From NCBI GenBank assembly GCA_037445065.1, contig JBBILD010000002.1, positions 1 to 64,000 of the forward strand: DNA of 64,000 nucleotides. Reading direction: 5' to 3'. Under the pieces are notes generated by a model that had not been told where the DNA came from, searched no databases, and saw only the letters and a list, made by a program, of their open reading frames with translations. Positions within the stretch are counted from its first letter, which is position 1, and the number at the start of each line of letters is the position of its first letter. The translations under genes were made by a program, and so were the position numbers. Shown in pieces: positions 46,711 through 63,399 of this stretch. Origin of the DNA: Myxococcales bacterium (GTDB taxonomy: Bacteria > Desulfobacterota > Binatia > HRBIN30).

Positions 46711-47172
46711 ATGGTAGCAAAACAAAAAGTGGCCTGGTTCTGCCTGCTCGCGCTGTTGTGCGGCTGTGTCGAGCGCTACCGCTCTAGCGCGACTCCGATC
46801 GTTTTTACAGGCTCGGGGGAGGTGGTGCAGAAAGGACTGCCTTTCTCAGAGGCGGTGCGGGTCGGGAACACGCTCTACCTGTCGGGGCAGATTGGTGTCT
46901 TACCAGGAACCACCCAATTGGTTCCGGGAGGGATTCGGGAGCAAACGATGCAAGCCATGCGCAACGTGGAGTCAGTCCTGCGTGCACACGGTTACAGCCT
47001 TTCCGACCTGGTCCGGTGCACGGTCATGCTTGCGGATATGTCAGACTGGTCCGCGTTCAACGAGGTCTACCAGAGCTTTTTCTCTGGGCACTATCCCGCG
47101 CGGAGCAGCTTCGCTGCTGCCGGCTTGGCTCTTGATGCACGGGTGGAAATCGAGTGTATCGCCGCCAAATAA
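46711..47172 (+). CDS. RidA/YjgF-family protein with lipoprotein signal
   Basis: PFSEAVRVGNTLYLSGQIG, PARS, VEIECIA; N-terminal LLCGC lipobox. Confidence 0.9.
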   Translation: MVAKQKVAWFCLLALLCGCVERYRSSATPIVFTGSGEVVQKGLPFSEAVRVGNTLYLSGQIGVLPGTTQLVPGGIREQTMQAMRNVESVLRAHGYSLSDLVRCTVMLADMSDWSAFNEVYQSFFSGHYPARSSFAAAGLALDARVEIECIAAK

Positions 47173-47272
47173 CTGCGGTGGCGAATGTCCCCTGTTCCGT
47201 GGCTCGCCGGTCATTGAGCGTTACCTCGGTGCGCTTCAACTTGTCTTGAGCACTTTTGCCCTGGATGCCCGC

Positions 47273-49570
47273 GTGCAAAGGCAACGTTCAGCGGTGGAAA
47301 GAACGACACCAGAGGCGCTGCTGCCGGGACGACAGACTAGGGCAAGGATCAGACCTGGCCGGTTTTCCGCACAACTATCATCGAGTTCGCGCGCCGTGTT
47401 GGCGGTGGTTGTCGCATCTGTGTCGATCGTCAGACTGGCACAAGCAATCGAACTCCAGGCTGAGCTTCGTGCGGTTCCTGGCGTGCGCGGCCGTGTTGTG
47501 CAAGCTGGGGTCCCGCTCCCGCGAGCTTGGGCGCGCGAAGCGGCTGCCTTGCAAGTGCGGGAGGGAGCACAGGTTCTACCTGCGCAAGTCGACGTTCGCG
47601 CACGTTGGCCCGATGGGTCACTGCGCTGGATCTGGGTGGATTGGCTAACCCAGAAACCACAGACTGGGAAGCAGGTTTTCGAACTAGAAGGCAAGCCCGG
47701 GGTGAAAGCGGAGCCACAATCAGGACTGCCGCGCGTACGGGTCGAGGAAGACCCGGGCGGTATCATGGTGGACACTGGTCCGTTGCGTGTCCGCTTGCCT
47801 CGCGACCGGGACGTGTGGTTCGAAATTCTTCCCCCCCTCGCTTCGAAACTGAGCAACCCCCGCGTCCTTTCGCATCTTCGCTTTAACGGGCACGACCACC
47901 GCGCACAGAGGCCGCGCACGCTGCGAGTGTTGGAACGCGGGCCGGTGCGCGCGCGGATCGAGCGGCAGGGACAGTACGGTGATGGCTCGATCCGGTACAC
48001 AGTGCGTGTCGACTTTTTCGCTGGCCAACCTTTGGTGCGCGTGTTTCATACGTTCGAGGTCCACGCAGATCTTCCCGGCGGGCAATTGGAGCGGCTGACC
48101 GTAGAGCTGCCTACCCCGCGGGGATCTCCTGTGCGCCTACGCGCGGGTCGGGTAGGGGACGGACCCTGGCAGAAGGAATTGCACCGAGCGCCGGTGTGGT
48201 TGGCACAAATGGATCGCGACCGCGTAACGCTTGCCGAACAGGCGTACTCTGGGTCCTTAGAGGGGCGATTTGTCGCCGCATCGCGTCACGCAGCAGTTGG
48301 CCTGGCGGCCTGGGACTTCTGGCAACAGTTCCCGCAGGGTGTGGGCTGGCTTGGAGATCGCCTGGTCTATGACCTTTACGCCCGGCAGGCGCAGCCTGCG
48401 CTGGCTGGAACTGGGTCGGCAAAAACCCACGAGTTCATGCTTTTTTTCCTCTCGGAGCCGCCTGCTGGCACGTGGCTTCCTGACCTCGCGGCAGTGCCTC
48501 TAGCACGGGTCAATGCAGACTGGTTCGCGACTAGTGAGGCGATGCGAAACGCCTTGGATGCGCGCTCCGAAAAGGCAAAGGCATTCTTGGCAAAATTGTC
48601 CCGTGCCTACGAGGATGTGCTGAGTACCGTAGACCGGGAGGAGTGGGAGGAACGTTCGGTGGCGGAGTGCTTGCCCGAAGGGGATCCCCACATAGGACGA
48701 CGTCGGCGAGGATTCTACGGAATGTGGAACTGGGGAGATTGGAATTTCCCGGGGTACCGCGACTCGGTCAAAGGGTGTGACGCGTGGGGAAACCTGGAAT
48801 ACGACCTGCCGCAAGTCCTAGCCCTTGCGTACGCAGCCACCGGCTCTGGAAACTTCTTGGACGGCCTCATCGCTTCGGCGCGCCATTTTATGGATGTTGA
48901 CCGCATCCACGCCCAGCCGCGTTTTCCACAGTGGGTGGGCATGAACCATCCAAAAAACCCTCTCCATTGGAGTTTTGCGAAAGGTGGCGTGGATTTAGGA
49001 CACACTTGGACCGAAGGCTTGCTTTCCTACTTCTTCCTTACCGGCGACGAGCGTGGCTTGGAGGCTGCACGCGGAATCGGGGAGTTTCTGCTGCGGCGTT
49101 TGCGCGCGGGTGTGAAGGGGAATCCGCGCCAATTCGGCTGGCCGCAAATCGCGTTAATTGCCCTTTATGAGGCAACCCTCGATGAACGCTACCGCGCCGC
49201 TGCCGTGGAGTACGCTCGGCAAGGAATGCAAAAACACCAGCCTGACAAGATTGAGGACTGGAAGTTGGGAATCTTCGCGGAAGGGCTGGTGTATGTTCAC
49301 ACTGTGACGCACGATCCTGAGATCTGGAGCTGGTTGGAGCGTTACACGCGAAAGGTGCTTGCCAGAGAAGCACCGATGGACTCCAGATTTTGGCCCGGGG
49401 TGGCGTACGTGGTGGCCTTGGCGAATGACAGCGCAGGGGTGGGGCGCGTCCAACAGTTCCTCGACTCGTTGGAGTTCGGCCGTTGGGCGAAACCCTTTAC
49501 TATCCAGAGCCGAGTGGGGTTCGCGATTCTATGGTACTTCCGGCACAGCGAGAGGCGGGCGCAACCGTGA
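47273..49570 (+). CDS. Exported PcRGLX/YetA-like (PL26-related) protein; start uncertain (47273 to about 47396)
   Basis: GVPLPR, WPDGSLRW, GPVRA, WQQFP, GMWNWGDW, WGNLEYD; the upstream part of the 934-aa ORF overlaps ridA and was discounted. Confidence 0.7.
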   Translation: MQRQRSAVERTTPEALLPGRQTRARIRPGRFSAQLSSSSRAVLAVVVASVSIVRLAQAIELQAELRAVPGVRGRVVQAGVPLPRAWAREAAALQVREGAQVLPAQVDVRARWPDGSLRWIWVDWLTQKPQTGKQVFELEGKPGVKAEPQSGLPRVRVEEDPGGIMVDTGPLRVRLPRDRDVWFEILPPLASKLSNPRVLSHLRFNGHDHRAQRPRTLRVLERGPVRARIERQGQYGDGSIRYTVRVDFFAGQPLVRVFHTFEVHADLPGGQLERLTVELPTPRGSPVRLRAGRVGDGPWQKELHRAPVWLAQMDRDRVTLAEQAYSGSLEGRFVAASRHAAVGLAAWDFWQQFPQGVGWLGDRLVYDLYARQAQPALAGTGSAKTHEFMLFFLSEPPAGTWLPDLAAVPLARVNADWFATSEAMRNALDARSEKAKAFLAKLSRAYEDVLSTVDREEWEERSVAECLPEGDPHIGRRRRGFYGMWNWGDWNFPGYRDSVKGCDAWGNLEYDLPQVLALAYAATGSGNFLDGLIASARHFMDVDRIHAQPRFPQWVGMNHPKNPLHWSFAKGGVDLGHTWTEGLLSYFFLTGDERGLEAARGIGEFLLRRLRAGVKGNPRQFGWPQIALIALYEATLDERYRAAAVEYARQGMQKHQPDKIEDWKLGIFAEGLVYVHTVTHDPEIWSWLERYTRKVLAREAPMDSRFWPGVAYVVALANDSAGVGRVQQFLDSLEFGRWAKPFTIQSRVGFAILWYFRHSERRAQP

Positions 49571-50152: not shown

Positions 50153-52453
50153 TCAACGCACGCCGGGTACATTGCGGAAGACACACGGGCCATCGCAAAA
50201 ATTTTCTACACGCCCGTCCGGGCGTAGAAAGGCATCCAATTGCCGCTGCGCCGCGTCGAGTCTGCGCACCGCCTCGTGGACTCCGTTCTCGAATTCGGGC
50301 GCCGTGTTGCTGAGCGGCGGCGCTGAGCCTCCCACGTCGAACGGAACCCAGGCCGAGCCGTCGAACGGCGCCTCTCGTTCAGGAATGCCAAAAGCGGGGT
50401 ACGCAGAGGGGCTCACGGCCGGAATCCCGAGACTTCGTACCTGGATTTCTGTGGCGACGTGCGACACTTGGGAGTCGTTGATTCCGGTATGAATGAGAAT
50501 CTTCTTCGCGGGGGTGCCGGGAAGCGGATCCTCCACCAGGTGGGATAAATACCCATTTGGCTCTGCTCGGTCCCAGAGTTGTTGGAGCAGAGGGTACATG
50601 ACTGCCCGGGCCAGTTCGTCAGGGTACGCCTGCTGAAAGACGAAGAGAAAAGGATTGAAGTCGATACTGCGCTGCAACAGAAAACTGTAATTCGATGCCC
50701 CGACCCCAAGAACACCGCGGGTGATGTTGGGTGCCAAAGCGAGAAACGCTGCTCCTTCGATCGCTCCTTGGCTGTTCCCGTGATAATAAAGCTCGCGCTG
50801 GTCGATGATAGGGATCCCTGCGAACTGAAAGGCAGGATGGGAACTGAGTCCGTCAGGAGCGAGTAAGAGCTGGCCCAGAAAAATTTGATTGATCAGGCTT
50901 TGCTGCAAGCGGTCTACAAGCTGGTTGAAGCGACTCAGATCCCCAATCATCCGCAACGTCCCATCGAGATCCTCGTTCGCCATTCCGATCCAATCGGTTG
51001 CCGCAATAATGAAGCCGAACCGTTGCGCCAAAGTCTGCTGCGGGCCTGCCATGACCTCCCCGGCCCCGCTACCAAAGAGCCCGTGTCCATAGATCATTGG
51101 CCGGCCCGGAATCGGTTCGGGTCCTTCCACCGCGGAACGAGGGATGATCACTGTGAAGGGCGCCTCCATAGTGCCGTTCTGCCGCGGGATACCCTGGTCG
51201 TCCAGATTGTAAACCGCTGGGGGGCGTGCGCTGGTTAAAAACAGAGGCACCGTGTAAAAACCTCGCACGCGACGGAACACCTGCTCGGTTACGTTGTCTT
51301 CGACAGAGGTCACGCGAAACGGCGGTGCTCCTGGTCCGTTCGCTGCCAGCGCCTGATCGCGGGCAGCGAGTGCCCTTCCCGTTAACGCCTCGGTGCTCGC
51401 TACCACGAAATCCCATGCGAGCTGGAGGTCGGTTCGTTCGATACCCGCACGAGCGAGCACGGCAAAGATGTTCTCGAAATGTTCCCTCCGTTGCTCGATT
51501 GCACGTACCGGGGTCGCCACGCGATCGCGAAGTGCAGCGAAGGCGCGCCGGGGTTGGATCAGTTCTCCTCGCGGATCACGCAGGCCGCGCAGGGCAACAA
51601 CATAGCGGCGATTTTCTCTGAGACGTACTCCGGGGCGCAAAATCAGCGAGCGCGTGGCGTAGGAGGTCGCATGCGCGTCGAGTTCGGCAAAGTGTAAAAT
51701 CCGTTCGCCCGTCTCCGCATCGAGTAGAACGGTCGGCGAGGTCGGCCGAAGCGATGCAGCCATGTCCGTGATCGGCGGCAGTCCCGAGGCCAGCGGATCA
51801 ATTCCTTCCGGGAATAGGGCTAACATCATTGCACCTGGGCTGAACCCGTCGAGCGTGTTCCATTCCGCCGGATCAACGTGCACGCCGCGCTGGTTCGCCG
51901 GCATCGCTTGCCGCTCGTAGTTGACCCGGAAGCCGGTCGGTGTGGTAGGATCGGCACGCAAGAAAAACGACGACGGGTAGGGGTAGAGGCAGACTTCGGG
52001 AACGAGGAAATCGCAGATCTGTGGAGCCCGGTCGAGTTCGCACAGGGGTTCGACCCGAGCGACGTCTGGATCGGAACAAGTTCCGGGAACATACGTGTTG
52101 GTCGGCGAGGCCGTGGCGGTGGGCGTGGGTGCAAGCGTGGGGGGCAAGGTCGCTGTCGCTGAGGCAGTCGCGGTGGGCACCCGGGTGGGCGTGAAATTTG
52201 CCACCGGCGTGAATGTGCTCGTGCTCGAAGCGCGGGTGAACGTCAGAGTCGCCGTGGGAGTGGCACTAGAGCGAGGCGGTGTGGGCGTATGAGTTGCAGT
52301 CAAACTGGGGGACGGGCTGGGCGAGAACGGGGCTGGGGATTCCGTGTGGGGAATATTAATATTGTGGTTGTCCCCGTCTCCCCCGCATCCCACGAGTGAC
52401 AGCAACAGACCTAGAGTGAACGCCGCTATGGTTCCCCTCCGCGAAAATCCCAT
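50153..52453 (-). CDS. Lipoprotein with long Pro/Thr linker and alpha/beta-hydrolase-like C-terminal region
   Basis: Lipobox LVGC-GGDGD, ~80-aa PT linker, NTLDGFS, YGHGLFG, GNSQG nucleophile elbow. Confidence 0.8.
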   Translation of the reverse strand: MGFSRRGTIAAFTLGLLLSLVGCGGDGDNHNINIPHTESPAPFSPSPSPSLTATHTPTPPRSSATPTATLTFTRASSTSTFTPVANFTPTRVPTATASATATLPPTLAPTPTATASPTNTYVPGTCSDPDVARVEPLCELDRAPQICDFLVPEVCLYPYPSSFFLRADPTTPTGFRVNYERQAMPANQRGVHVDPAEWNTLDGFSPGAMMLALFPEGIDPLASGLPPITDMAASLRPTSPTVLLDAETGERILHFAELDAHATSYATRSLILRPGVRLRENRRYVVALRGLRDPRGELIQPRRAFAALRDRVATPVRAIEQRREHFENIFAVLARAGIERTDLQLAWDFVVASTEALTGRALAARDQALAANGPGAPPFRVTSVEDNVTEQVFRRVRGFYTVPLFLTSARPPAVYNLDDQGIPRQNGTMEAPFTVIIPRSAVEGPEPIPGRPMIYGHGLFGSGAGEVMAGPQQTLAQRFGFIIAATDWIGMANEDLDGTLRMIGDLSRFNQLVDRLQQSLINQIFLGQLLLAPDGLSSHPAFQFAGIPIIDQRELYYHGNSQGAIEGAAFLALAPNITRGVLGVGASNYSFLLQRSIDFNPFLFVFQQAYPDELARAVMYPLLQQLWDRAEPNGYLSHLVEDPLPGTPAKKILIHTGINDSQVSHVATEIQVRSLGIPAVSPSAYPAFGIPEREAPFDGSAWVPFDVGGSAPPLSNTAPEFENGVHEAVRRLDAAQRQLDAFLRPDGRVENFCDGPCVFRNVPGVR
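52094..52345 (-). repeat. Pro/Thr/Ser low-complexity linker coding region
   Basis: SPSPSPSLTATHTPTPPRSSATPTAT...PTPTATASPTNT. Confidence 0.85.
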
Positions 52454-53606
52454 GGTTCGACCCCTTCCCACTAGAAACTGTTTTGCACTCCGCTGCGTGC
52501 CCTTTTTCTTGACTGCAGCAAACGTGAACAAGCGCTTGAAGCCGTGTTTTGACCCATTGAGGCACTTAGGACAAGGCTGGCGAGGTAGCCGCTAGCTTTT
52601 GCACGGCCAGCAGTCCCGAGTTCGACCCGAGGATACCAGTGAGTGCTTGTGGTCGCTCGCTTCGAACCTGTGACCGTTGGGCTGGCTGGTTATGGTGGTT
52701 CAGCCGAAACCTGGCCGGGGCGGTGTTTGCTGTGGAGATTGATGATCCTCGCAACGCCGTTGCCGACTGAAAACGGCCTGAAGGCTGCGCGCTCGGAAGC
52801 CCTAAAGACGCTTTCGCCTTGTGTTCTGGAGAGCCGGCAGCTTCTGGTGAGGCGGTTCTTCATGGTCCCTTGGTTGAGGCTGTTGGGCTGCACCGCGTCC
52901 AAGGGAACGTCCAGCCGCATGCCCGAGGAGCGGTGCTCTCGACCGTTGCGGCGCGGCTGTTCCGCAGCTCAACCACGGTAGCCTCGAGGCGGTGTGCACG
53001 AAGCCCCGTTGATCTATTGGGCGCTGCCGGTCGGTATCCAACCCGGTATCGGCGTGCGCGACGAAGGTTGCTACCACGTGCTGGTCCGTTCGCATCCGCC
53101 GTGGTGCGCATCGCCGCGGCGACACGTGGTTCGTGCCTGCCTCTCTTAAGTTCACTTCCCCACGGATTGCACCGACGGGGCAAGGTGCGTCGCTGGGCGG
53201 TCTTAGCCATGCGAAGGAATGGCGTTTCGATGACAGGCGGTGAACACCCCACGTCAGATTCGAGGCCCGCTCGCGGGCAGCTCTCCCGAGCCTGTCGCAG
53301 CATTGTTACGACAGCGCTTTGCTCGATTGGCTTTCCTGGGAACTCGAACCGCGCGATCGGCCAACAGACCCGATCGTTTTCCTCCCTTTGCTTTTAGCGC
53401 CACCTTTTGAAGAGGCCCGATCGCTGCGATTCAGGCCGGGAAAGGGTTGCAAGTTGCAAGAGGAGGATTTTCTCCTCGCGCATTTCCCCTTCGCTGCCCA
53501 CGAAGCCGTCCCGTGACACGCAAATACACCTACGGACGCCGCATCAGCGCGGCAACGCAGAGGGATTTTTACCGTTGCTCCGGGACGCAAACCCAACGCC
53601 AGTCTC

Positions 53607-54419
53607 TCAGTTGCTGGTGAACTGGTTCACCCTCCCCGTCACCTCCAGGTTAAAAGTGCCGCGAGGCGGCGGGTTCCCAGCAACAATCAAGTTCGGTCGC
53701 ATCGGTGCGGGCTCGACGTGGAACGTCAGAGCACCTCCCGAAACAGAGTCAATGACCAGTGTGGCCCCGGTCGTTTGCCAGATACGCGGCTGCGGAATAC
53801 CCACATTGGGTGTTTCAACGTACGTCATGGTGCCCAGCGGGGGTGTGATCGGATACCTACCCGGCGCAAAACCGCTGCGCGCTCCAATGATCCCGATTTG
53901 CACGCCGCGACGGAGTTGTCCCGGTGCCTCGCAGGTATTGCCAGTGATGGCCCAAACGTAAAGCCCGGTGTTCGGATCACGAACTTGAGCCGCGGCAGCG
54001 ATCGTGAGCCGTGCCGGGGAGAGTTCGGCATTGGTGTCGACCGGAGCTGACAGAATGGCCGTGATGTCTCCACTGTCACACCCAGGGATGGGCACGGGCG
54101 TCGCCGTGGGCGATCCGAACGTTGGCGTCACTGTCCGTGTGGGTGTGGGAGTTCGAGGGACGCCAGAGCAGCCGACGAGTGCGTTGTTCACCGAAGAAAT
54201 CAGCTCGTTGATGGTGACCTCGCCGTCCCCGTTGATATCACTCGCGGTACAGGTCGAAACCGCTGCCAAGCCAAGCGCGATGTTCACCCCGCGAATGACT
54301 TCGTCAACCGTCACCTGACCGTCATCGTTGCAGTCGCCCGAGCATTGGGCGCGCACGGTGGCTGCCGACAGAGCCACCAGGATCAGATACGTAACCCCGA
54401 TCGCCCGAAAACGAATCAT
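53607..54419 (-). CDS. Exported protein: N-terminal Cys-dockerin-like module, PT linker, unknown beta-rich domain
   Basis: Signal peptide ending VRA; CSGDCNDDGQVTVDEV...DINGDGEVTINEL...LVGC; GGAGG RBS. Confidence 0.85.
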   Translation of the reverse strand: MIRFRAIGVTYLILVALSAATVRAQCSGDCNDDGQVTVDEVIRGVNIALGLAAVSTCTASDINGDGEVTINELISSVNNALVGCSGVPRTPTPTRTVTPTFGSPTATPVPIPGCDSGDITAILSAPVDTNAELSPARLTIAAAAQVRDPNTGLYVWAITGNTCEAPGQLRRGVQIGIIGARSGFAPGRYPITPPLGTMTYVETPNVGIPQPRIWQTTGATLVIDSVSGGALTFHVEPAPMRPNLIVAGNPPPRGTFNLEVTGRVNQFTSN

Positions 54420-55779
54420 CTTCCGACCTCCCGACTGTATTGCCTTTGTCGAAACCCTGCTGCCGTCCCCTCCGAAGCAGGGGAGCGCGTTCGTCACCGG
54501 CCCCCGTCACGGGTTCGGGCACGAGGTGCATGCTCGATGCCCTAGCACAAGGATGCACCCGCACAGACTGGCAGACCGCCGGCAGAGCGGAGAGACATTG
54601 CGCGGTAGGTCCAGCGAGCGAGTGCACCACTGATAGAACCCTCGTGGCCTCCAACGAAGGGGGCAGAGGGGAAGATGAAGGGAGCCAATTCCTATCGAAC
54701 CAACCACGTGCCCGATCCTCTCTTCTCGGCGCGCTTATCGCCGCCCTCCTTCAAGACCTGGCCGTAACGCCTATTATGCGCGGACGATCCGCCGGCAGGG
54801 CCGTACTGCCCGGAGTTGTCGGGAGATCGGCGTCGCAACAACATGGGCACTCCCGAGTACCTTGCGACGTGTCACTTGGCAAGGAGAAACTGTCAGACTT
54901 CGGCTTTGATTTTGCCCCCGTCAACGCGCCCGGGAGGGTGCTCGATGGGTGTGGCTGCCCAGCCAAGGGCCGCGGGTGAGTCCCTGTGAATTTGCGGGCG
55001 GCTCGAGCGAGCTCCGGCGCTGGCTCGCGTTCGTCAAGGGCCCTGCGCATCCGAGTGGGTTGTCGTGGCGCACAACGAGCGATTCCTGAACGCTGCAGGT
55101 GTTCGAGGCCAAGCGGCCGCCGGGCGCGCAGCGCCGTCCCACCGCGCCTACACCGAGTACCTACCTGAGGTCATCTCGGTGCGTTCGTTCCTTTCGTAGC
55201 GACTCAACTCCCGGAAAAGCGCCGTGCTCAATGCACGGGCGCTCCGGCAAGTAAGCCAGGTTGTTTTGCGTTTGTCGCGGACTTCGATGCAACCCCGCCC
55301 AGCGATTGTGTCCCTCGTGTGTGCAGCGAACGCCTATTGGTCGCTTCCGATCCTCGTGCGAAACACACGGGTTGCAGGTGAAGCTGTGTGGTGGAAGTTC
55401 CTTTGTGCCGCAACTCTCACGCCGGTGGCGGATTCGTGTCCTCCCTTCCGAGTTTGTCCATTGTGCGCGTTGTGCTCGCTCGGTGGCTGAACTGGCCGCT
55501 CTGAGTGTGCAGGGGGTTTTTCGCACGCGCAGACGGGCTCGGCAGACCCCGAGAGCGGTCACTTGGCCCGCGGGCAGTGGCTGTCTTCCCGGGTTCGCTC
55601 GGTGCCCAGGCGAAAAGAGGCCCGATTTTCCCCAACCCATCTGTGCTCACGCTGGATTCGCTTCGGATCTGTCGCGCTCAAGCGTGTGGAGTCACGTCAG
55701 TGCTCAGGCAAGACGACAATCGGAAGGAGACCGACCTGCCCGGGTCTGACCGTCCTGTGACAAATCGGGTGCGCTTTTG

Positions 55780-57546
55780 TCACGTGGCGGTCAACAGCGC
55801 ACGCGGCACATCCACAACTTTGGCCCGCAGGTACTCGCCGAGGCTTTTGGCTTGCGGATCGAGTCGCGTCGAAGCCGCGACGCCATCCCCGAGCAATCCG
55901 CGAAGGACGAAGTTCAAGCTCAGGAGATTGGGGAGCTCGTGCCGCTCGATCGGCAGAGAGCGGGCTTCGGGGAGTAACGCGCGAAGCCGCTCGACAGTTA
56001 GAAACGAGCGGAGCCAACTGTAAGCGGCTGCGTCTCGCACCCAAACCCCAACGTTCGCGTTCCCGCCTTTGTCGCCCGAGCGAGCCCCCGCGATCAGGCC
56101 GAGAGGTACGGGCACGGTGGGGCCTGTTGGGGGCGGGGGGAGTTCGGCAGCGGGAGCCGCTGGGGGCGGATAGGACCCCGGTACTTCCACCGCAGGGATT
56201 GGAATTCGCTCCTCCCCCAAGACAACTTCTTGGTGCACCGCGGAGGAGGGAACGAGCGTGGGCCAGTAAACGCCAAAGGGGGAAGCGTCCGTCGGCGGTT
56301 GAGTAACGAAGAACCCTGGATAGTTTGCCAACGCAAGTTCTACCGCCTTGTTCGAGAAGGCCCGGCCCACTTTTGCCGCATCGCCGTCTTTGACGCAGAT
56401 TGTCAAATACGCAAAGGCCTCCTCGTTGCACCGGGGGTTCGGGCGGTCCCAACGGTAAAGTTGCACGTCTACTTCCTCGAACTGCTCTCTGCCGCCAACA
56501 GAATGCCAGAGCGCTCGCTGTACGGCGTCGGCTTTCTCCTCGATATCCAAACCAGTGAGAACAAAAGTGACCGAATTCCGGTATCCGCCCAAATAGTTGA
56601 TGCAGACTTTGGTGGTCGTTGGCGGCGGCTCGCCGCGCACGCCAAAGACCCGCACCCGATCCGGTCCCTCCTGCTGCAGACGGATCGTATCGAAGCGAGC
56701 GGTGACATCCGGGTTGAAATACTGCACCCCCTGGATTTCATACAGCAGTTGAGCTGTGACAGTACCGACCGAGACGATTCCTCCCGTCCCCGCGTGCTTC
56801 GTAATCGTACAACTGCCGTCCGCGTACATTTCGGCAACCGGGAATCCGATGCGCTCGATGTCAGGCACCTCGCGAAAGAATGGGTAGTTCCCCCCGGTGC
56901 ATTGGGCGCCGCACTCGATCACATGCCCAGCGACGACTGCACCTGCCAGAGCATCCCAGGCATCCGGGGCCCAACGGAAGTACCAGGCCGCGGGACCCAC
57001 GACTAAGGACGCGTCGGTCACGCGCGGACAGATCACCACGTCCGCCCCGCGGCGCAAGGCCTCGGCAATGCCCCAGCCGCCGAGATAAGCGTTGGCGGTC
57101 AGGATTGGCTTGCGCAGTTCAGACAACGGGATGTCTTTGTCCATGTGCCGGAGTTCGAAGCCAGCTTCCTGCAAGCCGCGCAGTTTCGGGAGCAGATCGT
57201 CCCCTTCGATGTGAGCGATCCTGACCTCCAGCCCTTGCTGCTCCGCCAGTTCCCTCAAGCGACGCGCTAACCCCGCTGGGTTGAGCCCACCGGCATTGCT
57301 CACAATCTTGATGCCGCGCTTCAGGCAGGTGGCCAGCACGTCCTGCATCTGGCGGAGAAACGTTTTCGCATAGCCGGCGTCGGGATCTTTCATACGGTCT
57401 TTGTACAAGATCATCATGGTGAGTTCGGCGAGGTAGTCGCCGGTTAAGACGTCGATGGGGCCGCCTTCGACCATTTCTCGCGCAGCACTCAAGCGATCAC
57501 CGTAAAAGCCACTACAATTGGCAATTCGCAGGACGTCCTTGGCCAT
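55780..57546 (-). CDS. atuA: Acyclic terpene utilization AtuA-family protein (DUF1446)
   Basis: RIANCSGFYGDR, DYLAELT, NAGGLNP, GHVIECG, ARSGDKGG, DPQAKSLGE. Confidence 0.9.
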   Translation of the reverse strand: MAKDVLRIANCSGFYGDRLSAAREMVEGGPIDVLTGDYLAELTMMILYKDRMKDPDAGYAKTFLRQMQDVLATCLKRGIKIVSNAGGLNPAGLARRLRELAEQQGLEVRIAHIEGDDLLPKLRGLQEAGFELRHMDKDIPLSELRKPILTANAYLGGWGIAEALRRGADVVICPRVTDASLVVGPAAWYFRWAPDAWDALAGAVVAGHVIECGAQCTGGNYPFFREVPDIERIGFPVAEMYADGSCTITKHAGTGGIVSVGTVTAQLLYEIQGVQYFNPDVTARFDTIRLQQEGPDRVRVFGVRGEPPPTTTKVCINYLGGYRNSVTFVLTGLDIEEKADAVQRALWHSVGGREQFEEVDVQLYRWDRPNPRCNEEAFAYLTICVKDGDAAKVGRAFSNKAVELALANYPGFFVTQPPTDASPFGVYWPTLVPSSAVHQEVVLGEERIPIPAVEVPGSYPPPAAPAAELPPPPTGPTVPVPLGLIAGARSGDKGGNANVGVWVRDAAAYSWLRSFLTVERLRALLPEARSLPIERHELPNLLSLNFVLRGLLGDGVAASTRLDPQAKSLGEYLRAKVVDVPRALLTAT

Positions 57547-58105
57547 GCGGCTTCCCTAAAACACAGCGTCGCGTACAAGCAAGGTGTGGACAAACTTCCC
57601 GGTGCTCGCGCGGCATCTATGGCCTCCGGGGGACAAACGAACGGGAGAATCGAGGTGCGACGATTTCGAGGAGTAGCTGGCTGTTGCTGGCCCGGCGGGG
57701 CGCGGGCGGGGTTCTGAAGCGAGGGGTAGTCGCGGCGTTCGCTCACTGGTTGCGCAGTGCCCTAGGGAGGGGATTTGACACCCTCCAAGAGAGCGGCGAA
57801 GCGCTGCGACATTTTGCCACTTTGTGCTCGCCTGTCTCTGACCGATACGAACGATGCCCATGACAGAACGTGCGGACCCAAAACGTCCCTTTGATTTGTG
57901 CCTCCAGAGAGTCGTTCCTCCTAGGAGATTGCAGCTGACCCGCTCGGTTTGCCGAAGCTGCAGCTTGGGCAGGCTGCTTTTCGGCTCGCTTCTCACTTGC
58001 GGGCTTGCGCGCCTGCAAGGCCGCCCGAAGAGGTGCGGCCTAGCTAGGTTTTCAACTCCGAGCGTCTGTGCAAGCTTTGAACACGATCTGCAGTAGGCAT
58101 GGAAC

Positions 58106-59479
58106 ATGCCCAGTGTGGGGAATGAGATGTCGCCGGGGTTCTGGAGTAGGGTCGTTCGTCTTTGTGGCTTTGTGGGGGCGACTTGTGCGTTCTTGTTCGC
58201 AGGCCAGGCACAGGGTGAGCTGCCATGGCCATTTCGTGTTCCTCTCGGTTTTCCGCGCCCCAAAGTGCCGGCAGACAATCCGTTATCCACGGAAAAATGG
58301 GCTCTCGGGCGTTTCTTATTTTACGACCTGAGACTGTCGGGAAACCAGACACAGTCTTGTGCATCCTGCCATCAGCAGGCACGAGCCTTCACAGACGGCT
58401 TGCCACAAGCGATGGGCTCCACAGGTGAGCGGCATCCGCGGAGCGCGATGAGCCTGGCAAACGTTGCGTATGCGACCGCTTTGGGATGGGCAAACCCACT
58501 CTTGGATTCACTCGAGAAGCAGGCGCTCGTGCCCATGTTCAATGAGCGGCCGGTAGAACTCGGCCTAGCAGGGAAGGAGGAGGAACTTTTTGCTCGCCTG
58601 GAAGCAGATCCCCGCTACGAGCGGTTATTTGCGGAAGCGTTCCCGCAGGACCCGCGCCCGGTGAATCTCGGCAACATCGTGCGCGCGATCGCCACGTTTC
58701 AGCGCTCCCTGTTGTCCGGAGATTCGCCCTACGACCGCTACATCCAAGGAGTTGACGATCAGGCAATCTCGGAATCTGCTTTTTTTGGGGGGCGTCTATT
58801 TTTTTCCGAAAGGCTGGAGTGCTTCCACTGTCACGGCGGTTTTAACTTCACAGCCTCGGTGACTCACGAGGGAAACCCTTTTGACGAGACGTCGTTCCAG
58901 AACAACGGCCTCTACAACATCGACGGCCGTGGAGCGTATCCGCCGGACAATACGGGCCTGTTCGAAATCACGCGCCTACCGGAGGACATGGGCCGATTCA
59001 AAGCCCCAACGCTACGCAACCTGAGCTTCACGGCGCCGTACATGCATGACGGGAGCATCGCGACTCTGGAGGAGGTCATCTCCCATTACGCTGCTGGGGG
59101 GCGGACGCTGCACACCGGCCCATACGCCGGTGACGGCTCTAAAAACCCGTACAAGAGTAACTTCGTTCGTGGCTTCGAACTCACGGACCAGGAACGCGAG
59201 GATCTGCTGGCGTTCTTACGTTCGCTGGATGACGAGGCGTTCGTGCGCAATCCGCTCTTCAGTGATCCGTTCACGGGGTGGGACTGCGTTGCGGACTGTA
59301 ATTACGACCAGTTGGTCAGCGTCGATGAGCTGGTGCGCGCGGTCGGTACGGCTCTGGGCCTTTCGGCCTTGGCGCATTGCCTCCCAGCTGACGTAAGCGG
59401 CGAGGGAGAGGTCACTGTGGACGAACTCCTCCAAGGGGTTCGGATGCTGCTTTCCGACTGTCACACCGACAGACGGTAA
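58106..59479 (+). CDS. MbnH-like di-heme enzyme (cytochrome c peroxidase/MauG superfamily) with C-terminal Cys-dockerin-like module
   Basis: CASCH and CFHCH heme motifs, NNGLYNIDGRGAYP, FKAPTLRN, PYMHDGS; signal peptide (start may be 58124). Confidence 0.88.
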   Translation: MPSVGNEMSPGFWSRVVRLCGFVGATCAFLFAGQAQGELPWPFRVPLGFPRPKVPADNPLSTEKWALGRFLFYDLRLSGNQTQSCASCHQQARAFTDGLPQAMGSTGERHPRSAMSLANVAYATALGWANPLLDSLEKQALVPMFNERPVELGLAGKEEELFARLEADPRYERLFAEAFPQDPRPVNLGNIVRAIATFQRSLLSGDSPYDRYIQGVDDQAISESAFFGGRLFFSERLECFHCHGGFNFTASVTHEGNPFDETSFQNNGLYNIDGRGAYPPDNTGLFEITRLPEDMGRFKAPTLRNLSFTAPYMHDGSIATLEEVISHYAAGGRTLHTGPYAGDGSKNPYKSNFVRGFELTDQEREDLLAFLRSLDDEAFVRNPLFSDPFTGWDCVADCNYDQLVSVDELVRAVGTALGLSALAHCLPADVSGEGEVTVDELLQGVRMLLSDCHTDRR

Positions 59480-59521
59480 GGTTCGGTCTGGGTGAGAATC
59501 GTGCGGAGGTGAGGAAGTAGG

Positions 59522-60481
59522 ATGTATGCTCGAAAAGCCTATGTGCGAGTCCTGGGAGTCTCTCTAACGTTCGCGTTCCTGTCCGTCGCAGAGCCCGCTT
59601 GTAAGCAACAACCGGTTGGTAAGGCGCAGCCGTCGGCTGCCACACCAGTTCTGATAATGGCCTCGCCGGGGCCGCGCTTCTCCATGGAGGAACTGCACCG
59701 AATGGGTGGCGTCCCGGCCGGCTGGCAACTGAGTCCGCCCCCGGGCGACGTAAACCGCGGGCGAGAAGCCTTCGTAAGCTTTGGGTGCCACCGTTGCCAC
59801 GCGATTGCAGGAGAGGCTTTTCCCGAGAGTCGAAGCGGCCCTGGCCCGGAACTCACGGGGATGGGGGAGCACCACCCCCCAGCGTACTTTGTAGAAGCCA
59901 TTCTCAATCCAAACGGAATCCTCATCGAGGGTCCGGATTATTTGACAGCGGAGGGCACTTCGCGAATGCCCTCATATCCGGACATGAGCTTGGCCGAGCT
60001 GGCGGACCTGGTTGCCTACCTGTCGAGCCTGAGAGGCAGTGAGGGGACGAGCCATCCCCATCATCGGCCTGAGAGCGCCGAGAAGCACGCTGGGACCCAT
60101 TATGGGCCGGGGAGCGCAGAGGAGCATGCGGGGCACCATGACCACGCTTCTGCGACAGGCGATGCAGAACGCTGGGCTTACGTGCTGCAAGTGTACGAGC
60201 TCCCCGAACACCTACTCGAGTCTTTTTACGATTGGTTCGCCCGCAATGAAGATCGGGCAATCCCCGGTCTTGCGCGTATCGAGACGTATGCCAGTCGCCT
60301 GCGGACGCCCACGGGAAACATTACGGTTGCGACCATGTTTGCCTTCGAAAACGAGGCTCTTGCCTCGTCCTTCCTGAACAGGCAGGAAGCCCAGCCTACC
60401 AACACGTTCGTGCGTCCTGTGGAGCAAGTGCTGCTGAGAAGCCCCGTACTCTTCCGCGCAGTACAAATGAGCCGCCCATAG
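59522..60481 (+). CDS. Exported mono-heme cytochrome c with His-rich linker and C-terminal domain
   Basis: GCHRCH, GPELTG, SRMPSY (probable axial Met), 9-His segment. Confidence 0.82.
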   Translation: MYARKAYVRVLGVSLTFAFLSVAEPACKQQPVGKAQPSAATPVLIMASPGPRFSMEELHRMGGVPAGWQLSPPPGDVNRGREAFVSFGCHRCHAIAGEAFPESRSGPGPELTGMGEHHPPAYFVEAILNPNGILIEGPDYLTAEGTSRMPSYPDMSLAELADLVAYLSSLRGSEGTSHPHHRPESAEKHAGTHYGPGSAEEHAGHHDHASATGDAERWAYVLQVYELPEHLLESFYDWFARNEDRAIPGLARIETYASRLRTPTGNITVATMFAFENEALASSFLNRQEAQPTNTFVRPVEQVLLRSPVLFRAVQMSRP

Positions 60482-60624
60482 TGGCGAGGAGAAAAATACA
60501 AGCGGCGGGCCAGAGTTTAAGAGGCCAGAATCGTGGTTGCTGTTTCCCGGCAGTTGTGGTCGGAAAGAACTACACGGCGCATACGACCGCAGGTGCCGGA
60601 TTCTGAAGCAGAGGGAGGGAGGAG

Positions 60625-61509
60625 ATGAGCGAACGCCTGGCAAATCGCGTGGCGATCATTACCGGTGGGGGAAGCGGGATCGGGCGCGCCTCGGTCCTGC
60701 GCTTTTTGGAAGAAGGGGCCGCGGTGGTGGTGGCGGATTACAATCCTTCTACCGGTGAGGAAACCGTGGAACTTGCCAGGCGTGCCGGTCATGGCTCGCG
60801 CGTGCGGTTTGTGCGAACGGACGTGGCCCAGGAAGCCGATGTACAGCAGGCCGTTCAGGTTGCACTGGAGCAGTTCGGCCGCCTGGATTGTATGTTCAAC
60901 AACGCAGGCGTGGCAGGTGCGTTTGGCCCGATCACGCACATTGCGGTGGAAGACTGGGACTACACATTTGCCGTGCTGGTACGGGGCGTATTTCTCGGCA
61001 TCAAGCACGCTGCTCGGGTGATGAAGCGGCAGGGAAGTGGCGGGGTGATTCTCAACACTGCTTCGATTGCTGGACTCAGTGGGGGAGACGGCCCACAGGC
61101 GTATTCTGCAGCGAAGGCAGCGGTCATCAATTTGAGCCGGGCAGTCGCAATCGAGTTGGCCCCCGACAAGATCCGGGTGAATGCGATTTGCCCCGGCGGG
61201 GTTCTTACCCCGCTCCTCCATCGGGGGAATCCGGAGGGTGCTGTTGCATTTCTGGAGACCTTCCAGCCCTGGCCCGAAGCGGGTCAGCCCGAGCACATTG
61301 CGTCTGTGGCCGCCTTTCTGGCTTCGGACGACGCTCGCTTCATCACAGGCGCTGCCATTGTCGTTGATGGGGGTGCGACTGCGTGCGGTTCGAATGCCAT
61401 CCGCCACTTGCGGGGAGCCTCGCCACTGCCGCTCCAAGGCGTTGCCGGAGTGGATCGAGGCACCACAGGAGAGCAAATTGAACTGCGGCAAGTGTCAGAG
61501 GCGGACTGA
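60625..61509 (+). CDS. Short-chain dehydrogenase/reductase
   Basis: TGGGSGIG, NNAG, YSAAK, IRVNAICPG. Confidence 0.95.
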   Translation: MSERLANRVAIITGGGSGIGRASVLRFLEEGAAVVVADYNPSTGEETVELARRAGHGSRVRFVRTDVAQEADVQQAVQVALEQFGRLDCMFNNAGVAGAFGPITHIAVEDWDYTFAVLVRGVFLGIKHAARVMKRQGSGGVILNTASIAGLSGGDGPQAYSAAKAAVINLSRAVAIELAPDKIRVNAICPGGVLTPLLHRGNPEGAVAFLETFQPWPEAGQPEHIASVAAFLASDDARFITGAAIVVDGGATACGSNAIRHLRGASPLPLQGVAGVDRGTTGEQIELRQVSEAD

Positions 61510-61528
61510 CTCCGAGCTGGAACATGAG

Positions 61529-62047
61529 ATGCACGAGGATTGGACCACGCTCTTCGCACATTTGACCAGCGGGATTTACATCTTGACGACGGGCTCGGGC
61601 GAACATGCCCACGGCATGTCTGCCTCATGGGTATCGCAAGTGTCCGCAGATCCGCCCCTGCTCGGACTGGCCCTCGGCAAGCAATACCGGAGCTGCAGGT
61701 GGGTCGAGGCAAACGGACGTTTTGCCTTGAACGTAGTCGGTAAACGGTCGCGCTTCTTGCAAGACCACTTCCATGCCGCGGCCGTGCGGGGTCATGGTCA
61801 CATGCAAGGAGTGCGCTGGGAAGCCTCGCCGGCCGGGCTTCCCTGGCTGTTGGATGCCCTGGTCTGCATGGATTGCGAGGTAGTGGAGCGTCATCCGATT
61901 GGGGACCGAATCTGGTTTGTTGCGCGTGCCACGGCGTGGCGCGGTGGCGTGCCAGATCTTCCGCTGTCGTCCGCCGACCTGCCGTATGTTTTTGTGGGAC
62001 GGCTGATTTCCGCACCGTGGCGGGGAGCAACAAAGGAGCATGAGTAA
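61529..62047 (+). CDS. Flavin reductase-like protein
   Basis: SGIYILT, GMSASWVSQVSADPP, FALNV, DCEVV; GDR in place of the usual GDH. Confidence 0.82.
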   Translation: MHEDWTTLFAHLTSGIYILTTGSGEHAHGMSASWVSQVSADPPLLGLALGKQYRSCRWVEANGRFALNVVGKRSRFLQDHFHAAAVRGHGHMQGVRWEASPAGLPWLLDALVCMDCEVVERHPIGDRIWFVARATAWRGGVPDLPLSSADLPYVFVGRLISAPWRGATKEHE

Positions 62048-63399
62048 TGCTGCGCAAGAAGTTAGCCGTGGCGTGCCTTGGGCTGAGCAGCGTTTTTGGG
62101 CTGCCAGCCGCGTACGCGCAAGTTTTGCAGTACGCGGGGGCGATCGAACGGAGCGAGGTCGCGCCTCTGGGTGGGGCCCATGGCGTGTCCGTTGCTCCCG
62201 ACGGCTCGCAAATCTTTGCGGTCGCTTTTGATGACAATGCTTTACTTGTCTGGGTTCGTGATGCCAGGACTGGAAGCCTGACTTTTGCTCAAGCGTTTGT
62301 CGAAGGGGTGGGCGGAATCTCGGGATTGTTTCGCGCAGTGCGTGTAACCCCATCCCCAGACGGGACAGGAGTGTACGTAGGTGCGTTCTTTGGCGACTCC
62401 GTTGCTGTTTTTCGGCGCGATTCTCAAGGGGTTCTCCGTTTCGAGCAAGCACTATTCGGTGGGGCGAGCGGGGTATTCGGGCTCACCCAGGTTCGAGATC
62501 TCGAATTTTCCCCCGATGGGCGCTTCCTCTATGTAGCCAGTTACGGGGACAACGCGGTTCTCGTGCTCGAGCGAAGCGAGAGGGACGGTTCGCTGCGGCC
62601 CATAGAGGTCGTCTCCGATCGAGATGAAGGCGGCACAGTCCCGGGACTTGTGCGGCCGACCTCACTCGCAGTCAGCCCGGATGGGCAGCAGGTGTACACC
62701 GCCTGCACCGGATCGCAGAGCTTGGTCGTGTTCGACCGGGACGCTAGGAGCGGGACCCTCGTACACGAAGCAACCTTTTTCCAGGGCGAGGGCGGGATCC
62801 GCGGCTTGAGCGGCGCAGAAGCGCTGGCTGTGAGTCCCGACGGCCGTGACCTTTACGTTGCCGGTGGCGACGGCGTCGCGCACTTCGCGCGCCGCCCTGA
62901 AGGCGTGTTCTACGTCCGCAGCATGGACGGCGAGGTGGTTGGTGAGTCAGGGGTGGCCGGCCCGAGTGACTTGGCGCTAACGCCTCAGGGCAACTACGCT
63001 TTTTTAACGCGAGCTGGGGACGACACCTTGGTCGTGTTGCAGCGAGATGCATCCAGCGGAGCGCTCGATCTTGTGGAGCTGCACCGCGCGGCTGACGAAC
63101 CCCGTCCGGGACTGCGCGGTGCCAGCTCTGTGGCCCTGTCACCGGACGGCAGGTGGGTCTACGTGGCGGGTCAGTTCGACGACGCTGTCGGCGTTTTTCG
63201 GCGGATCCCTGCTTGCCTGGGAGACTGCGACGAGGACGGGGAAGTTACGGTCGACGAGTTGACTCGGGCCGTCCGGGTTGCGCTAAGGCAGACTGTGGAC
63301 CTCGATTGCTGGCAAGCGGACCGTGATGCTGATGGCGAGCTTACCGTGGACGAGATCGTGGCTGCGGTGCGGCGCGCGCTGGTTGGCTGCGGCGGGTGA
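62047..63399 (+). CDS. Exported lactonase-like beta-propeller protein with C-terminal Cys-dockerin-like module
   Basis: Seven SPDG-type blades (APDG, SPDG x5, TPQG); signal peptide ending AYA; CLGDCDEDGEVTVDEL...DRDADGELTVDEI...LVGC. Confidence 0.88.
   Translation: MLRKKLAVACLGLSSVFGLPAAYAQVLQYAGAIERSEVAPLGGAHGVSVAPDGSQIFAVAFDDNALLVWVRDARTGSLTFAQAFVEGVGGISGLFRAVRVTPSPDGTGVYVGAFFGDSVAVFRRDSQGVLRFEQALFGGASGVFGLTQVRDLEFSPDGRFLYVASYGDNAVLVLERSERDGSLRPIEVVSDRDEGGTVPGLVRPTSLAVSPDGQQVYTACTGSQSLVVFDRDARSGTLVHEATFFQGEGGIRGLSGAEALAVSPDGRDLYVAGGDGVAHFARRPEGVFYVRSMDGEVVGESGVAGPSDLALTPQGNYAFLTRAGDDTLVVLQRDASSGALDLVELHRAADEPRPGLRGASSVALSPDGRWVYVAGQFDDAVGVFRRIPACLGDCDEDGEVTVDELTRAVRVALRQTVDLDCWQADRDADGELTVDEIVAAVRRALVGCGG

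Follow-up and report, generated by a model that had tools for sequence, protein, structure and literature searches.

A four-Cys dockerin-like module and candidate anchored cohesins suggest a non-cellulosomal tethering system in one order of Binatia

RESULTS

Three exported proteins share a four-Cys module

The window, the whole 64,000-nucleotide stretch of Binatia DNA that was analyzed, contains three genes whose products combine an N-terminal signal-peptide-like stretch, recognized on inspection and with a crude script, with a common 59-aa module (Table 1). The three modules align without gaps, with 47% identity to copy 1 in translation, and each has Cys residues at C1, C5, C32, and C59 and two loops of the form D-x-[ND]-x-[DN]-G-x-V-T-[VI]-[DN]-E. 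An earlier note had placed such a module at either terminus of unrelated exported proteins, and the translations agree with it at all three positions.

Table 1. Modules and module-bearing genes in the window
Feature	Coordinates	Strand	Basis
Four-Cys dockerin-like module, copy 1	54168..54344	-	Translation and HMM; AlphaFold model pLDDT 96.5; dockerins are the best fold matches
Four-Cys dockerin-like module, copy 2	59285..59461	+	Translation and HMM
Four-Cys dockerin-like module, copy 3	63214..63390	+	Translation and HMM
Host 1: N-terminal module behind a signal peptide, then a Thr/Pro linker and a ~150-aa domain without known family	53607..54416	-	ORF
Host 2: MbnH-family di-heme enzyme with signal peptide and C-terminal module	58106..59479	+	TIGR04039
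Host 3: lactonase-type beta-propeller with signal peptide and C-terminal module	62047..63399	+	PF10282

Host 1, whose start codon is most likely the ATG at 54416 and not an upstream GTG, carries its module directly after the signal peptide. Its cargo domain matched no family in Pfam or NCBIfam, and three relatives with 62 to 64% identity all keep the N-terminal module. Host 2 scored 501.5 bits against its family model (cutoff, 362.85), and the propeller of host 3 scored 96 bits, with a module match in 26 of the 120 homologues listed.

The module has a predicted dockerin fold

In the AlphaFold model of the module, helices span residues 13 to 23 and 45 to 57, and the position profiles of the two repeats matched across 145 unique copies, as for a duplicated calcium loop-helix unit with internal symmetry. 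Dockerins ranked first in Foldseek (TM score, 0.58 to 0.71; probability, 0.87 to 1.00; zero rows at E ≤ 0.001), whereas EF-hand proteins reached TM scores of only 0.25 to 0.40, with an rmsd of 10 to 12 to calmodulin-like chains. Ranks 1 to 13 in VIA-align were likewise all dockerins (best Z, 6.5; rmsd, 3.0; 58 residues aligned). A Z of 6.5 is modest. A canonical EF-hand pair was rejected on the basis of these low TM scores and the absence of a helix ahead of loop 1 in the model.

Compared with the Pfam models, the module is closer to EF-hands by sequence and a dockerin by predicted fold. EF-hand_1 matched 41 of 48 copies and Dockerin_1 matched 16 (E ≤ 0.01). Copy 1 scored 21.6 bits against Dockerin_1 (PF00404) alone and 17.4 bits within its protein, relative to a gathering score of 22.9, and copies 2 and 3 were not among the Dockerin_1 matches listed for their proteins. 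A sequence search of the PDB with the module returned calcium-binding proteins and no dockerins. In type I dockerins, the consensus is Asp at loop position 12 and Asn or Asp at position 9. The module departs from it at both, with Glu at position 12 in 92% and 90% and Thr at position 9 in 65% and 69% of the first and second repeats, respectively, of the 145 copies; a 12-residue loop with a terminal Glu is an EF-hand trait. The GC-type dockerin (NF041540; cutoff, 29 bits) was rejected as an identity, as it matched 1 of 48 copies (E = 0.042), and its sole match in the genome was an ordinary dockerin at 23.9 bits. The earlier proposal of a dockerin variant therefore holds for the predicted fold, a paired loop-helix dockerin, although the sequences fall below the Pfam cutoff.

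Co-variation between the two repeats was seen at loop positions 10, 11, and 14 but not at positions 3, 4, 5, and 15. At position 11, the same residue occupied both repeats in 63 of 104 copies (50.4 expected). Moreover, in an F-G-N subclass of modules, found on some cohesin-bearing proteins, the recognition residues are switched in both repeats together. Joint switching of recognition residues is a better fit to a protein partner than to a lipid.

The module is abundant within one order and carried on mixed cargo

The genome encodes about 55 to 60 copies of the module, and one relative encodes 139. An iterated HMM gave 64 matches on 62 of 45,092 reading frames, far above chance, a count that takes in approximately 6 broken or partial copies and approximately 9 of other dockerin subtypes; a curated 48-row profile gave 56 matches at E ≤ 1e-5. 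The crude signal-peptide script was positive for 42 of 56 hosts, versus 452 of 1,154 background frames. Module, cohesin, and myxosortase core were each present in 18 of 18 other genomes of the same order and, outside the order, in 3, 2, and 4 of 132 genomes, respectively. Co-distribution counts as one data point because a single clade is involved. We conclude that the module extends well beyond the three window genes, both in this genome and in others, and that within Binatia it is limited to one order rather than spread through the whole class.

The cargo is mixed, comprising redox and copper proteins, peptidases, propellers, and many domains of no known family, with no cellulases found. Families include MbnH, MbnP, cytochrome P460, and TolB-like propellers; also represented are an MtrC/MtrF-type multiheme cytochrome, peptidases of extracellular type, and choice-of-anchor V/Q domains. 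The 53 hosts scanned showed no glycoside hydrolase or CBM family, in keeping with the earlier suggestion of non-CAZyme cargo. A hidden hydrolase is possible, since a scan of 50 of these hosts left 32 with no family assigned to their cargo and one carries BNR repeats.

Candidate cohesin scaffoldins are encoded outside the window

The search for cohesin-like scaffolds that had been proposed returned candidates elsewhere in the genome, namely, a lipoprotein and cohesin-fold proteins with MYXO-CTERM tails. Three tandem domains of the lipoprotein (G000:C11:104185-106497) exceeded the Pfam Cohesin cutoff, as did a domain on contig C4 that the first cohesin HMM had missed. The repeat of a second, MYXO-anchored protein (G000:C11:145793-146863) gave no Pfam Cohesin (PF00963) match, and 14 of 40 members of its family matched at E ≤ 0.01. 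Its model (pLDDT, 87.8) is a cohesin beta-sandwich (Foldseek E, 6e-8; TM score, 0.73), and the top 20 VIA rows were all cohesins at Z 12.1 to 16.6, the next row being at 9.8; the best match had an rmsd of 2.3 over 130 aligned residues. The last 40 residues of this protein reappear at the start of contig C22, which has a terminal MYXO-CTERM.

Cohesin genes adjoin module genes in a conserved operon with the order FG-GAP protein with module, Cys-rich domain with module, and anchored cohesins, such that two module-bearing genes lie next to the cohesin gene. Among 30 loci, the middle gene carried the module in 29, the FG-GAP gene lay upstream in 26, and the cohesin gene lay downstream in 25; the middle gene was present in 51 of 52 genomes of the order. 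The middle gene was considered as a cohesin itself and rejected as weak (hhalign probability, 8.6%; Atlas score, 0.92 to clusters with 13 to 18% Pfam Cohesin). Anchored scaffoldins have one to three cohesins and a MYXO-like tail in the operon and up to six cohesins in database proteins.

Candidate components for sorting such tails are also encoded. Two tails exceeded the TIGR03901 cutoff of 20 with a Cys-TM-Arg arrangement (C22:310-393, 24.3 bits; C21:55290-55388, 20.6 bits), and the genome has 4 tails over the cutoff and about 9 by pattern. The myxosortase core (NF040914) scored 96.6 bits against a cutoff of 100 in this genome and was single copy in 52 of 52 genomes of the order, over the cutoff in 29. 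A type II secretion system was read from the GspD secretin (TIGR02517, 577 bits; cutoff, 351).

The module alternates with lipid anchors

Orthologues of MbnH at 24 loci comprised 9 with a module and an ordinary signal, 14 with a lipobox (called by eye) and no module, 1 truncated, and none with both. A lipobox pattern was set aside, since most of its hits, in 7 of 118 module proteins, were by eye the module's first Cys or a Cys of the h-region. The MbnH tree required three changes and did not reject a single origin of the module (p-AU, 0.14), such that one gain may be compatible with it. No MbnP remnant was found upstream of the MbnH gene of the window. Among 150 multi-cohesin proteins, 41 had a module, 51 had a MYXO-like tail, and 0 had both, an exclusion due in part to competition for the C terminus. 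MYXO-like tails were found on 0 of 62 host frames, and paralogue pairs within the genome exchange the module for a tail or a lipobox. We conclude from these sequence comparisons that the module probably replaces the cargo's own lipid anchor.

DISCUSSION

We favor the interpretation that, in one Binatia order, the module and the cohesins together form a cohesin-dockerin system for non-cellulosomal tethering, with binding predicted from fold and gene context. Dozens of tagged exported proteins and encoded membrane-anchored sockets suggest that this uncultured Gram-negative group probably holds proteins on its cell envelope by plug-and-socket docking instead of by lipid anchors. The module would be a disulfide-locked dockerin serving as a portable tethering tag. 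Hosts would be exported by the ordinary signal peptides seen in their sequences. In the periplasm, two disulfides would form, probably C1-C59 and C5-C32, the former a putative covalent counterpart of the dockerin terminal clasp, and the module would take up two Ca2+ ions. It would then dock, in either of two orientations, onto a cohesin of a scaffoldin that is fixed to the envelope through a lipid anchor of the MYXO-CTERM type or through an N-terminal lipoprotein anchor, where fold, anchors, and gene linkage are computed. Proteins with several cohesins and one module, an architecture seen directly, may serve as adaptors, increasing the number of docking sites. By analogy with Myxococcus MYXO-CTERM proteins, anchored scaffoldins would probably reach the cell surface through type II secretion.

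An unlikely alternative is that the module is an orphan dockerin-like anchor, which would either tether cargo by Ca2+ bridging to lipopolysaccharide, to matrix, or to some unrelated receptor or simply stabilize that cargo, and that the cohesin-fold domains are cargo with either anchor. Ordinary dockerins can expand in the absence of detectable cohesin, as another Binatia family has 4 to 19 Dockerin_1 matches per genome in 7 of 7 genomes and no cohesin by either profile in those genomes. The EF-hand-like loops with their terminal Glu also suit this alternative, as does the excess of approximately 55 modules over approximately 18 cohesin domains in the genome, and the anchor exchange speaks to anchoring rather than to the binding target. 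Nonetheless, anchored tandem-cohesin genes lie immediately downstream of module-bearing genes at most operon loci, cohesins are concentrated in precisely the module-bearing order, and the recognition residues switch jointly in both repeats, including in the F-G-N subclass.

We give still less credence to complexes that are real but periplasmic, organizing envelope enzymes on the inner or outer membrane with no surface coat. Among the cargo, MbnH, MbnP, and cytochrome P460 occur in the periplasm of other bacteria and TolB-like propellers are likewise a periplasmic family, the lipoprotein scaffoldin is without a known surface signal, and the myxosortase match in the genome is slightly below its cutoff. 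Set against this are the GspD secretin, which is over its cutoff, and the cytochrome of the MtrC/MtrF type, the extracellular-type peptidases, and the choice-of-anchor domains among the cargo. Moreover, MYXO-CTERM proteins of Myxococcus become surface exposed via type II secretion, according to the accessible text of PMC11980579. It is possible, if doubtful, that the favored tethering system builds a coat that gathers redox machinery instead of cellulases outside the cell, including the multiheme cytochrome, cytochrome P460, and the MbnP/MbnH copper pair; that MbnP would dock in such a coat by a half-module is a similarly doubtful proposal.

The least likely alternative makes a structural mesh, or an adhesive between cells, the main product, with proteins of several cohesins and one or two modules cross-linked into a branched coat and enzymes secondary. 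Some of the 41 multi-cohesin proteins with a module have up to five cohesins and one module or modules at both ends, and repeat or propeller proteins without an enzyme family are frequent among the hosts. However, most hosts of this genome bear a single module and lack a cohesin (both profiles matched 3 of 62 frames), which would cap a mesh rather than extend it, and the separate F-G-N subclass on some cohesin-bearing proteins suggests ordered tiers.

The proposed tethering system shares predicted dockerin and cohesin folds with the cellulosomes of Clostridium thermocellum, C. acetobutylicum, and Acetivibrio cellulolyticus (PDB 2ccl, 6kgc-6kgf, 3ul4, and 5nrk), as well as a symmetric loop-helix duplication, tandem cohesins that are nearly identical, scaffolds of anchored and adaptor type, and dozens to >100 tagged proteins per genome. 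It differs in its two-membrane host, a MYXO-CTERM or lipoprotein anchor where cellulosomes use SLH or sortase, a dockerin and a cohesin predicted to be rich in disulfides, loops with Glu12/Thr9, lack of detected glycoside hydrolase cargo, and cohesin identity of 11 to 18%. Archaeal non-cellulosomal proteins (Archaeoglobus fulgidus, PDB 2xdh; ANME scaffoldin-like proteins, PMC9012536) also have non-CAZyme cargo and, in the accessible text, one dockerin with up to five cohesins per protein; 2xdh was among the top fold matches of the C11 repeat (Z, 15.6). The archaea differ in having an S-layer envelope and standard Pfam-detectable dockerins, and the same portions of PMC9012536 report neither a MYXO-CTERM anchor nor a swap with lipid anchors. 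The hypothetical "Planctosome" of freshwater Planctomycetes, as far as the available part of PMC6461901 describes it, is likewise a cohesin-dockerin assembly of a bacterium with two membranes; it too has anchoring and adaptor proteins and carries peptidases, but it belongs to another phylum and has few components and a single-cohesin anchor with a lamin-tail domain, in contrast to the conserved operon, recognized sorting signal, and 55 to 139 tagged proteins here. The NagJ/NagH toxin-complex pair of Clostridium perfringens (PDB 2ozn, 2vo8, and 2w1n) is non-cellulosomal and ranked among the best fold matches of both the module and the cohesin; it differs in coming from a Gram-positive bacterium and in linking a few glycoside hydrolases, with no such dedicated anchored multi-cohesin scaffold.

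MYXO-CTERM/myxosortase sorting (TIGR03901 and NF040914; PMC11980579; bioRxiv 10.1101/2023.06.07.544157), as presented in the accessible portions of these sources, has counterparts here in the scaffoldin tail over its cutoff, the single-copy myxosortase core, and GspD. In Myxococcota the tail sits directly on dozens of proteins, whereas here it is on 4 (about 9 by pattern) and the module is on approximately 55. Those portions make no mention of dockerins, cohesins, or Binatia. Our searches found no published description of this system in Binatia/Binatota or of a dockerin-MYXO-CTERM link, and subscription papers or supplements may list such proteins. Annotation of its members as EF-hand or hypothetical would explain why such a system is missed.

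Because cargo families visibly trade a lipid anchor for the tag, the system offers a directly testable case for the role of non-cellulosomal dockerins. If binding is true, small, probably orthogonal cohesin-dockerin pairs with predicted disulfide locks could be of use in display engineering. The system would also join cohesin-dockerin assembly with MYXO-CTERM sorting, two fields between which we found no printed link, and would represent a cellulosome-scale cohesin-dockerin system in a two-membrane lineage that is not for cellulose.

A dockerin-like module on exported proteins

The earlier note had described a module on three exported proteins of the window. All three copies were found where it had placed them, each 59 residues long and gap free, with cysteines C1, C5, C32, and C59, two acidic loops that would bind calcium, and a helix after each loop; the module is real. 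In the source genome (3.79 Mb, 97.7% complete), an iterated HMM returned 64 matches on 62 frames and a curated profile returned 56. Placement at either terminus also held: of the 56 well-scoring hosts, 27 carried the module at the C terminus and 15 at the N terminus, and in the other 14 it was internal or unplaced. Broken or frameshifted copies were seen as well, pointing to turnover of tagged genes.

Locations of modules, hosts, and related features (C, contig of source genome G000; L, individual locus)
Feature	Location	Strand	Description
Host 1	window 53607-54416	minus	signal peptide, module (54168-54344) directly after, Thr/Pro linker, domain of no known family
Host 2	window 58106-59479	plus	MbnH-family di-heme enzyme; module 59285-59461
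Host 3	window 62047-63399	plus	lactonase-type propeller; module 63214-63390
Monoheme cytochrome c	window 59522-60481	plus	exported, His-rich stretch, immediately 3′ of mbnH
Long exported protein	window 46766-49570	plus	weak PcRGLX-like (rhamnogalacturonan lyase) matches, without module
Broken/frameshifted module copies	C2:213058, C20:1525-2526, C20:53255, C23:7531, C11:23012		
Second dockerin class	C5:50583, C8:37841, C14:76725, C17:55057, C18:3973, C25:39806, C29:26942		Ala-Ala-Asp-type positions 10-12
Second propeller/scaffoldin pair, member 1	C21:56885-59491		propeller, two modules flanking one cohesin
Second propeller/scaffoldin pair, member 2	C21:55272-56924		two cohesins, MYXO-CTERM
MtrC/MtrF-type multiheme cytochrome	C7:151986-154454 (L019)		ordinary signal peptide, N-terminal module
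MbnP half-module	C10:7508-8400 (L025); L129:2654-3706; L131:2658-3638; L132:363-1352; L142:328-1359		one loop-helix between two Cys
~190-aa exported domain	C9:5224, C14:75084, C6:204420, C8:173089		plus seven non-host frames

An AlphaFold model built from 48 genome copies had a pLDDT of 96.5. Foldseek placed dockerins on top (TM, 0.58 to 0.71; EF-hand proteins, 0.25 to 0.40), with no match under an E value of 0.001, and VIA-align ranks 1 to 13 were dockerin chains (best Z, 6.5). The fold ranking thus favors the dockerin proposed earlier, but sequence matches lean to the EF-hand: EF-hand_1 matched 41 of the 48 copies and Dockerin_1 matched 16, and a PDB sequence search returned calcium-binding proteins with no dockerin among them. 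The leaning arises because loop position 12 is Glu in >90% of copies. The module also differs from type I dockerins in two of their sequence marks, and the NCBIfam GC-type dockerin was ruled out by profile comparison.

All four cysteines were kept in 127 of 145 unique copies. C1 and C59 were jointly lost, with C5 and C32 retained, in 7 of the 18 other copies, and C59 alone was missing in five, some of these by misalignment. The paired loss suggests C1-C59 and C5-C32 bonds, of which the former would correspond to the terminal clasp known from dockerins (PMC3821032), here made covalent. Dual binding of type I dockerins is reported to rest on symmetric surfaces (PMC12484212). The two repeats of the module agreed above within-genome shuffles at positions 11 (63/104 observed versus 50.4 expected; P = 0.0005), 14 (64 versus 44.8), 10 (P = 0.03), and 7 (P = 0.045), values whose significance is overstated because paralogues are kin; from G132 and G068 (139 and 57 modules in total), only the 30 top-scoring loci per genome entered the comparison. 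The same shuffles gave no excess at positions 3, 4, 5, 9, or 15. Positions 10 and 11 are presumably recognition positions, and one subclass exchanges T-V-D for F-G-N simultaneously in both loops.

Anchored cohesins

The earlier note had proposed docking onto a scaffold or cell surface, and cohesins were detected: Pfam Cohesin exceeded its cutoff on a C4 protein and on each of three domains that stand in tandem in a lipoprotein (C11:104185-106497), and with an iterated profile, 13 frames gave a total of 17 cohesin-like domains. A second dockerin class, closer to the ordinary type, passed the Pfam cutoff at seven places; its partner may be another cohesin, for example that of the tri-cohesin lipoprotein.

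Another protein, C11:145793-146863, has a signal peptide and two identical Cys-rich repeats reaching past the contig end. Contig C22 opens with 120 bases that exactly match both repeats; a Thr/Pro linker follows, and this continuation ends in a MYXO-CTERM tail over cutoff. The modeled fold of the repeat is unmistakably that of a cohesin. The gene stands downstream of two module-bearing genes. One encodes an FG-GAP propeller; the product of the other has a Cys-rich domain, possibly a cohesin that has diverged. The same three-gene order, with one to three cohesins plus tail, was present in 6/6 relatives' regions examined, one with an assembly gap within the repeats. Among 30 shorter loci, which include the source genome and of which some are paralogues or truncated where a contig stops, the middle gene carried the module in 29, FG-GAP lay upstream in 26, and cohesin lay downstream in 25; the middle gene occurred in 51 of 52 genomes of the order. 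The C21 pair repeats this theme of module-bearing propeller plus anchored cohesins.

A third anchor type was seen on the single cohesin of C15:153-1301 (L007), where a Thr/Pro linker leads to a hydrophobic Arg-ended tail without Cys, which we take by its pattern to be IPTL-like. Two contig ends (C40:7876-8754 and C41:2-550) hold longer variants of the Cys-rich cohesin, probably another repeat-collapsed scaffoldin.

Exchange of the module with other anchors

MbnH anchors, classified by eye at 24 loci, were a module with an ordinary signal peptide in 9 (one stop interrupted) and a lipobox without module in 14, of which 11 come from a different order and 3 from the present one; one locus was truncated. 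The MbnH tree needed three changes, and a single gain of the module was not rejected. In the source genome, a TolB-like propeller, a Cys-rich domain, and FG-GAP propellers carried either the module or a MYXO-like tail. Moreover, the lipoprotein at window 50153-52531 (minus strand), without a Pfam family, is 28% identical over 636 columns to C7:154610-156808, which begins with the module where the former has its lipobox. NCBIfam choice-of-anchor V matched three module hosts and choice-of-anchor Q matched one. The module was present in 41 and a MYXO-like tail in 51 of the 150 best multi-cohesin proteins from a 1.8-billion library; none had both, versus ~14 expected by independence, in a pattern-based tally in which both often compete for the C terminus. 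The tail was likewise absent from all 62 module host frames of the source genome, N-terminal-module hosts included. We conclude that the module, judged from sequence, behaves as an anchor.

Cargo

Cargo was scanned in 50 of 56 nonwindow hosts, leaving out six short or broken ones. Families found were FG-GAP/ASPIC, MtrC/MtrF multiheme, MbnP, cytochrome P460 with NHL repeats, trypsin, M10 and M28 peptidases, YCF48/BNR, PD40, DUF3604, and BP74; 32 of the 50 had no recognized family, and none had a glycoside hydrolase. MtrC/MtrF-type cytochromes, one of which carries the module (L019), are normally surface lipoproteins. MbnP carried a half-module in five genomes, with a full-module MbnH alongside in four; in the source genome, mbnP and the window's mbnH lie on different contigs. 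In Ruminococcus, naturally truncated dockerins are reported to occupy a cohesin two at a time (PMC12270676). The monoheme cytochrome c beside mbnH, an arrangement kept in G092, G023, and G041, is a possible copper/electron partner. The unnamed ~190-aa domain was expanded to at least 11 frames, several with dockerin-like modules, and had no Pfam match in the four frames scanned.

Distribution

Relatives bear the label Candidatus Binatia in their source records. Among 150 genomes of the class, the module was found in 18/18 of the same order (presumably HRBIN30) versus 3/132 others (1 to 2 copies each), and a phylum sample gave 0/99 for genomes not belonging to the order. Fifteen same-order genomes had at least 42 copies; three of family f2 had 9 to 13. 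The cohesin profile matched 18/18 versus 2/132 and the myxosortase core 18/18 versus 4/132; the core was present in 52/52 order genomes, 29 over cutoff (source genome, 96.6 versus 100). As the co-occurrence marks one clade, it reflects joint inheritance, not repeated co-gain.

Ordinary Dockerin_1 matches occurred in 39/132 genomes of other orders. Family f7 (G003, G012, G082, G098, G106, G114, and G130), with 4 to 19 matches per genome and with no cohesin by either cohesin profile and no myxosortase core, is by its profile matches an orphan dockerin expansion. Such dockerins count against cohesin docking. That the module uses a receptor other than cohesin nevertheless seems unlikely to us, cohesins accompanying it throughout the order.

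Proposed assembly

Noncellulosomal cohesin-dockerin systems are published for archaea (PMC9012536), and the planctosome is a published hypothetical one (PMC6461901). A genome survey of cellulosome producers demanded dockerin-bearing hydrolases (PMC11557425), and a word search of its available text found no mention of Binatia; the same search of the myxosortase preprint's available text (bioRxiv 10.1101/2023.06.07.544157) found no dockerin, cohesin, or Binat-. No openly accessible article was found whose main text connects either dockerin or cohesin to Binatia, Binatota, or MYXO-CTERM.

In Myxococcus, MYXO-CTERM proteins undergo cleavage, lipidation, and T2SS-driven surface transfer (PMC11980579), and GspD of the T2SS is present in the source genome. 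The sequence analysis established folds, protein architectures, gene linkage, joint distribution, and anchor exchange; calcium binding, disulfides, docking itself, the matching of cohesins to module classes, and cellular location are inferences. Cohesin docking confined to the periplasm has a still smaller chance of being correct than a receptor other than cohesin, and a structural mesh is the least credible reading. The system is not a cellulosome, because no hydrolase cargo was found, but its assembly layer would work alike. We consider it probable that the module docks cargo proteins onto anchored cohesins, that multi-cohesin-plus-module proteins serve as adaptors, and that the scaffoldins, by analogy with Myxococcus, would be cleaved, lipidated, and carried to the surface by the T2SS.
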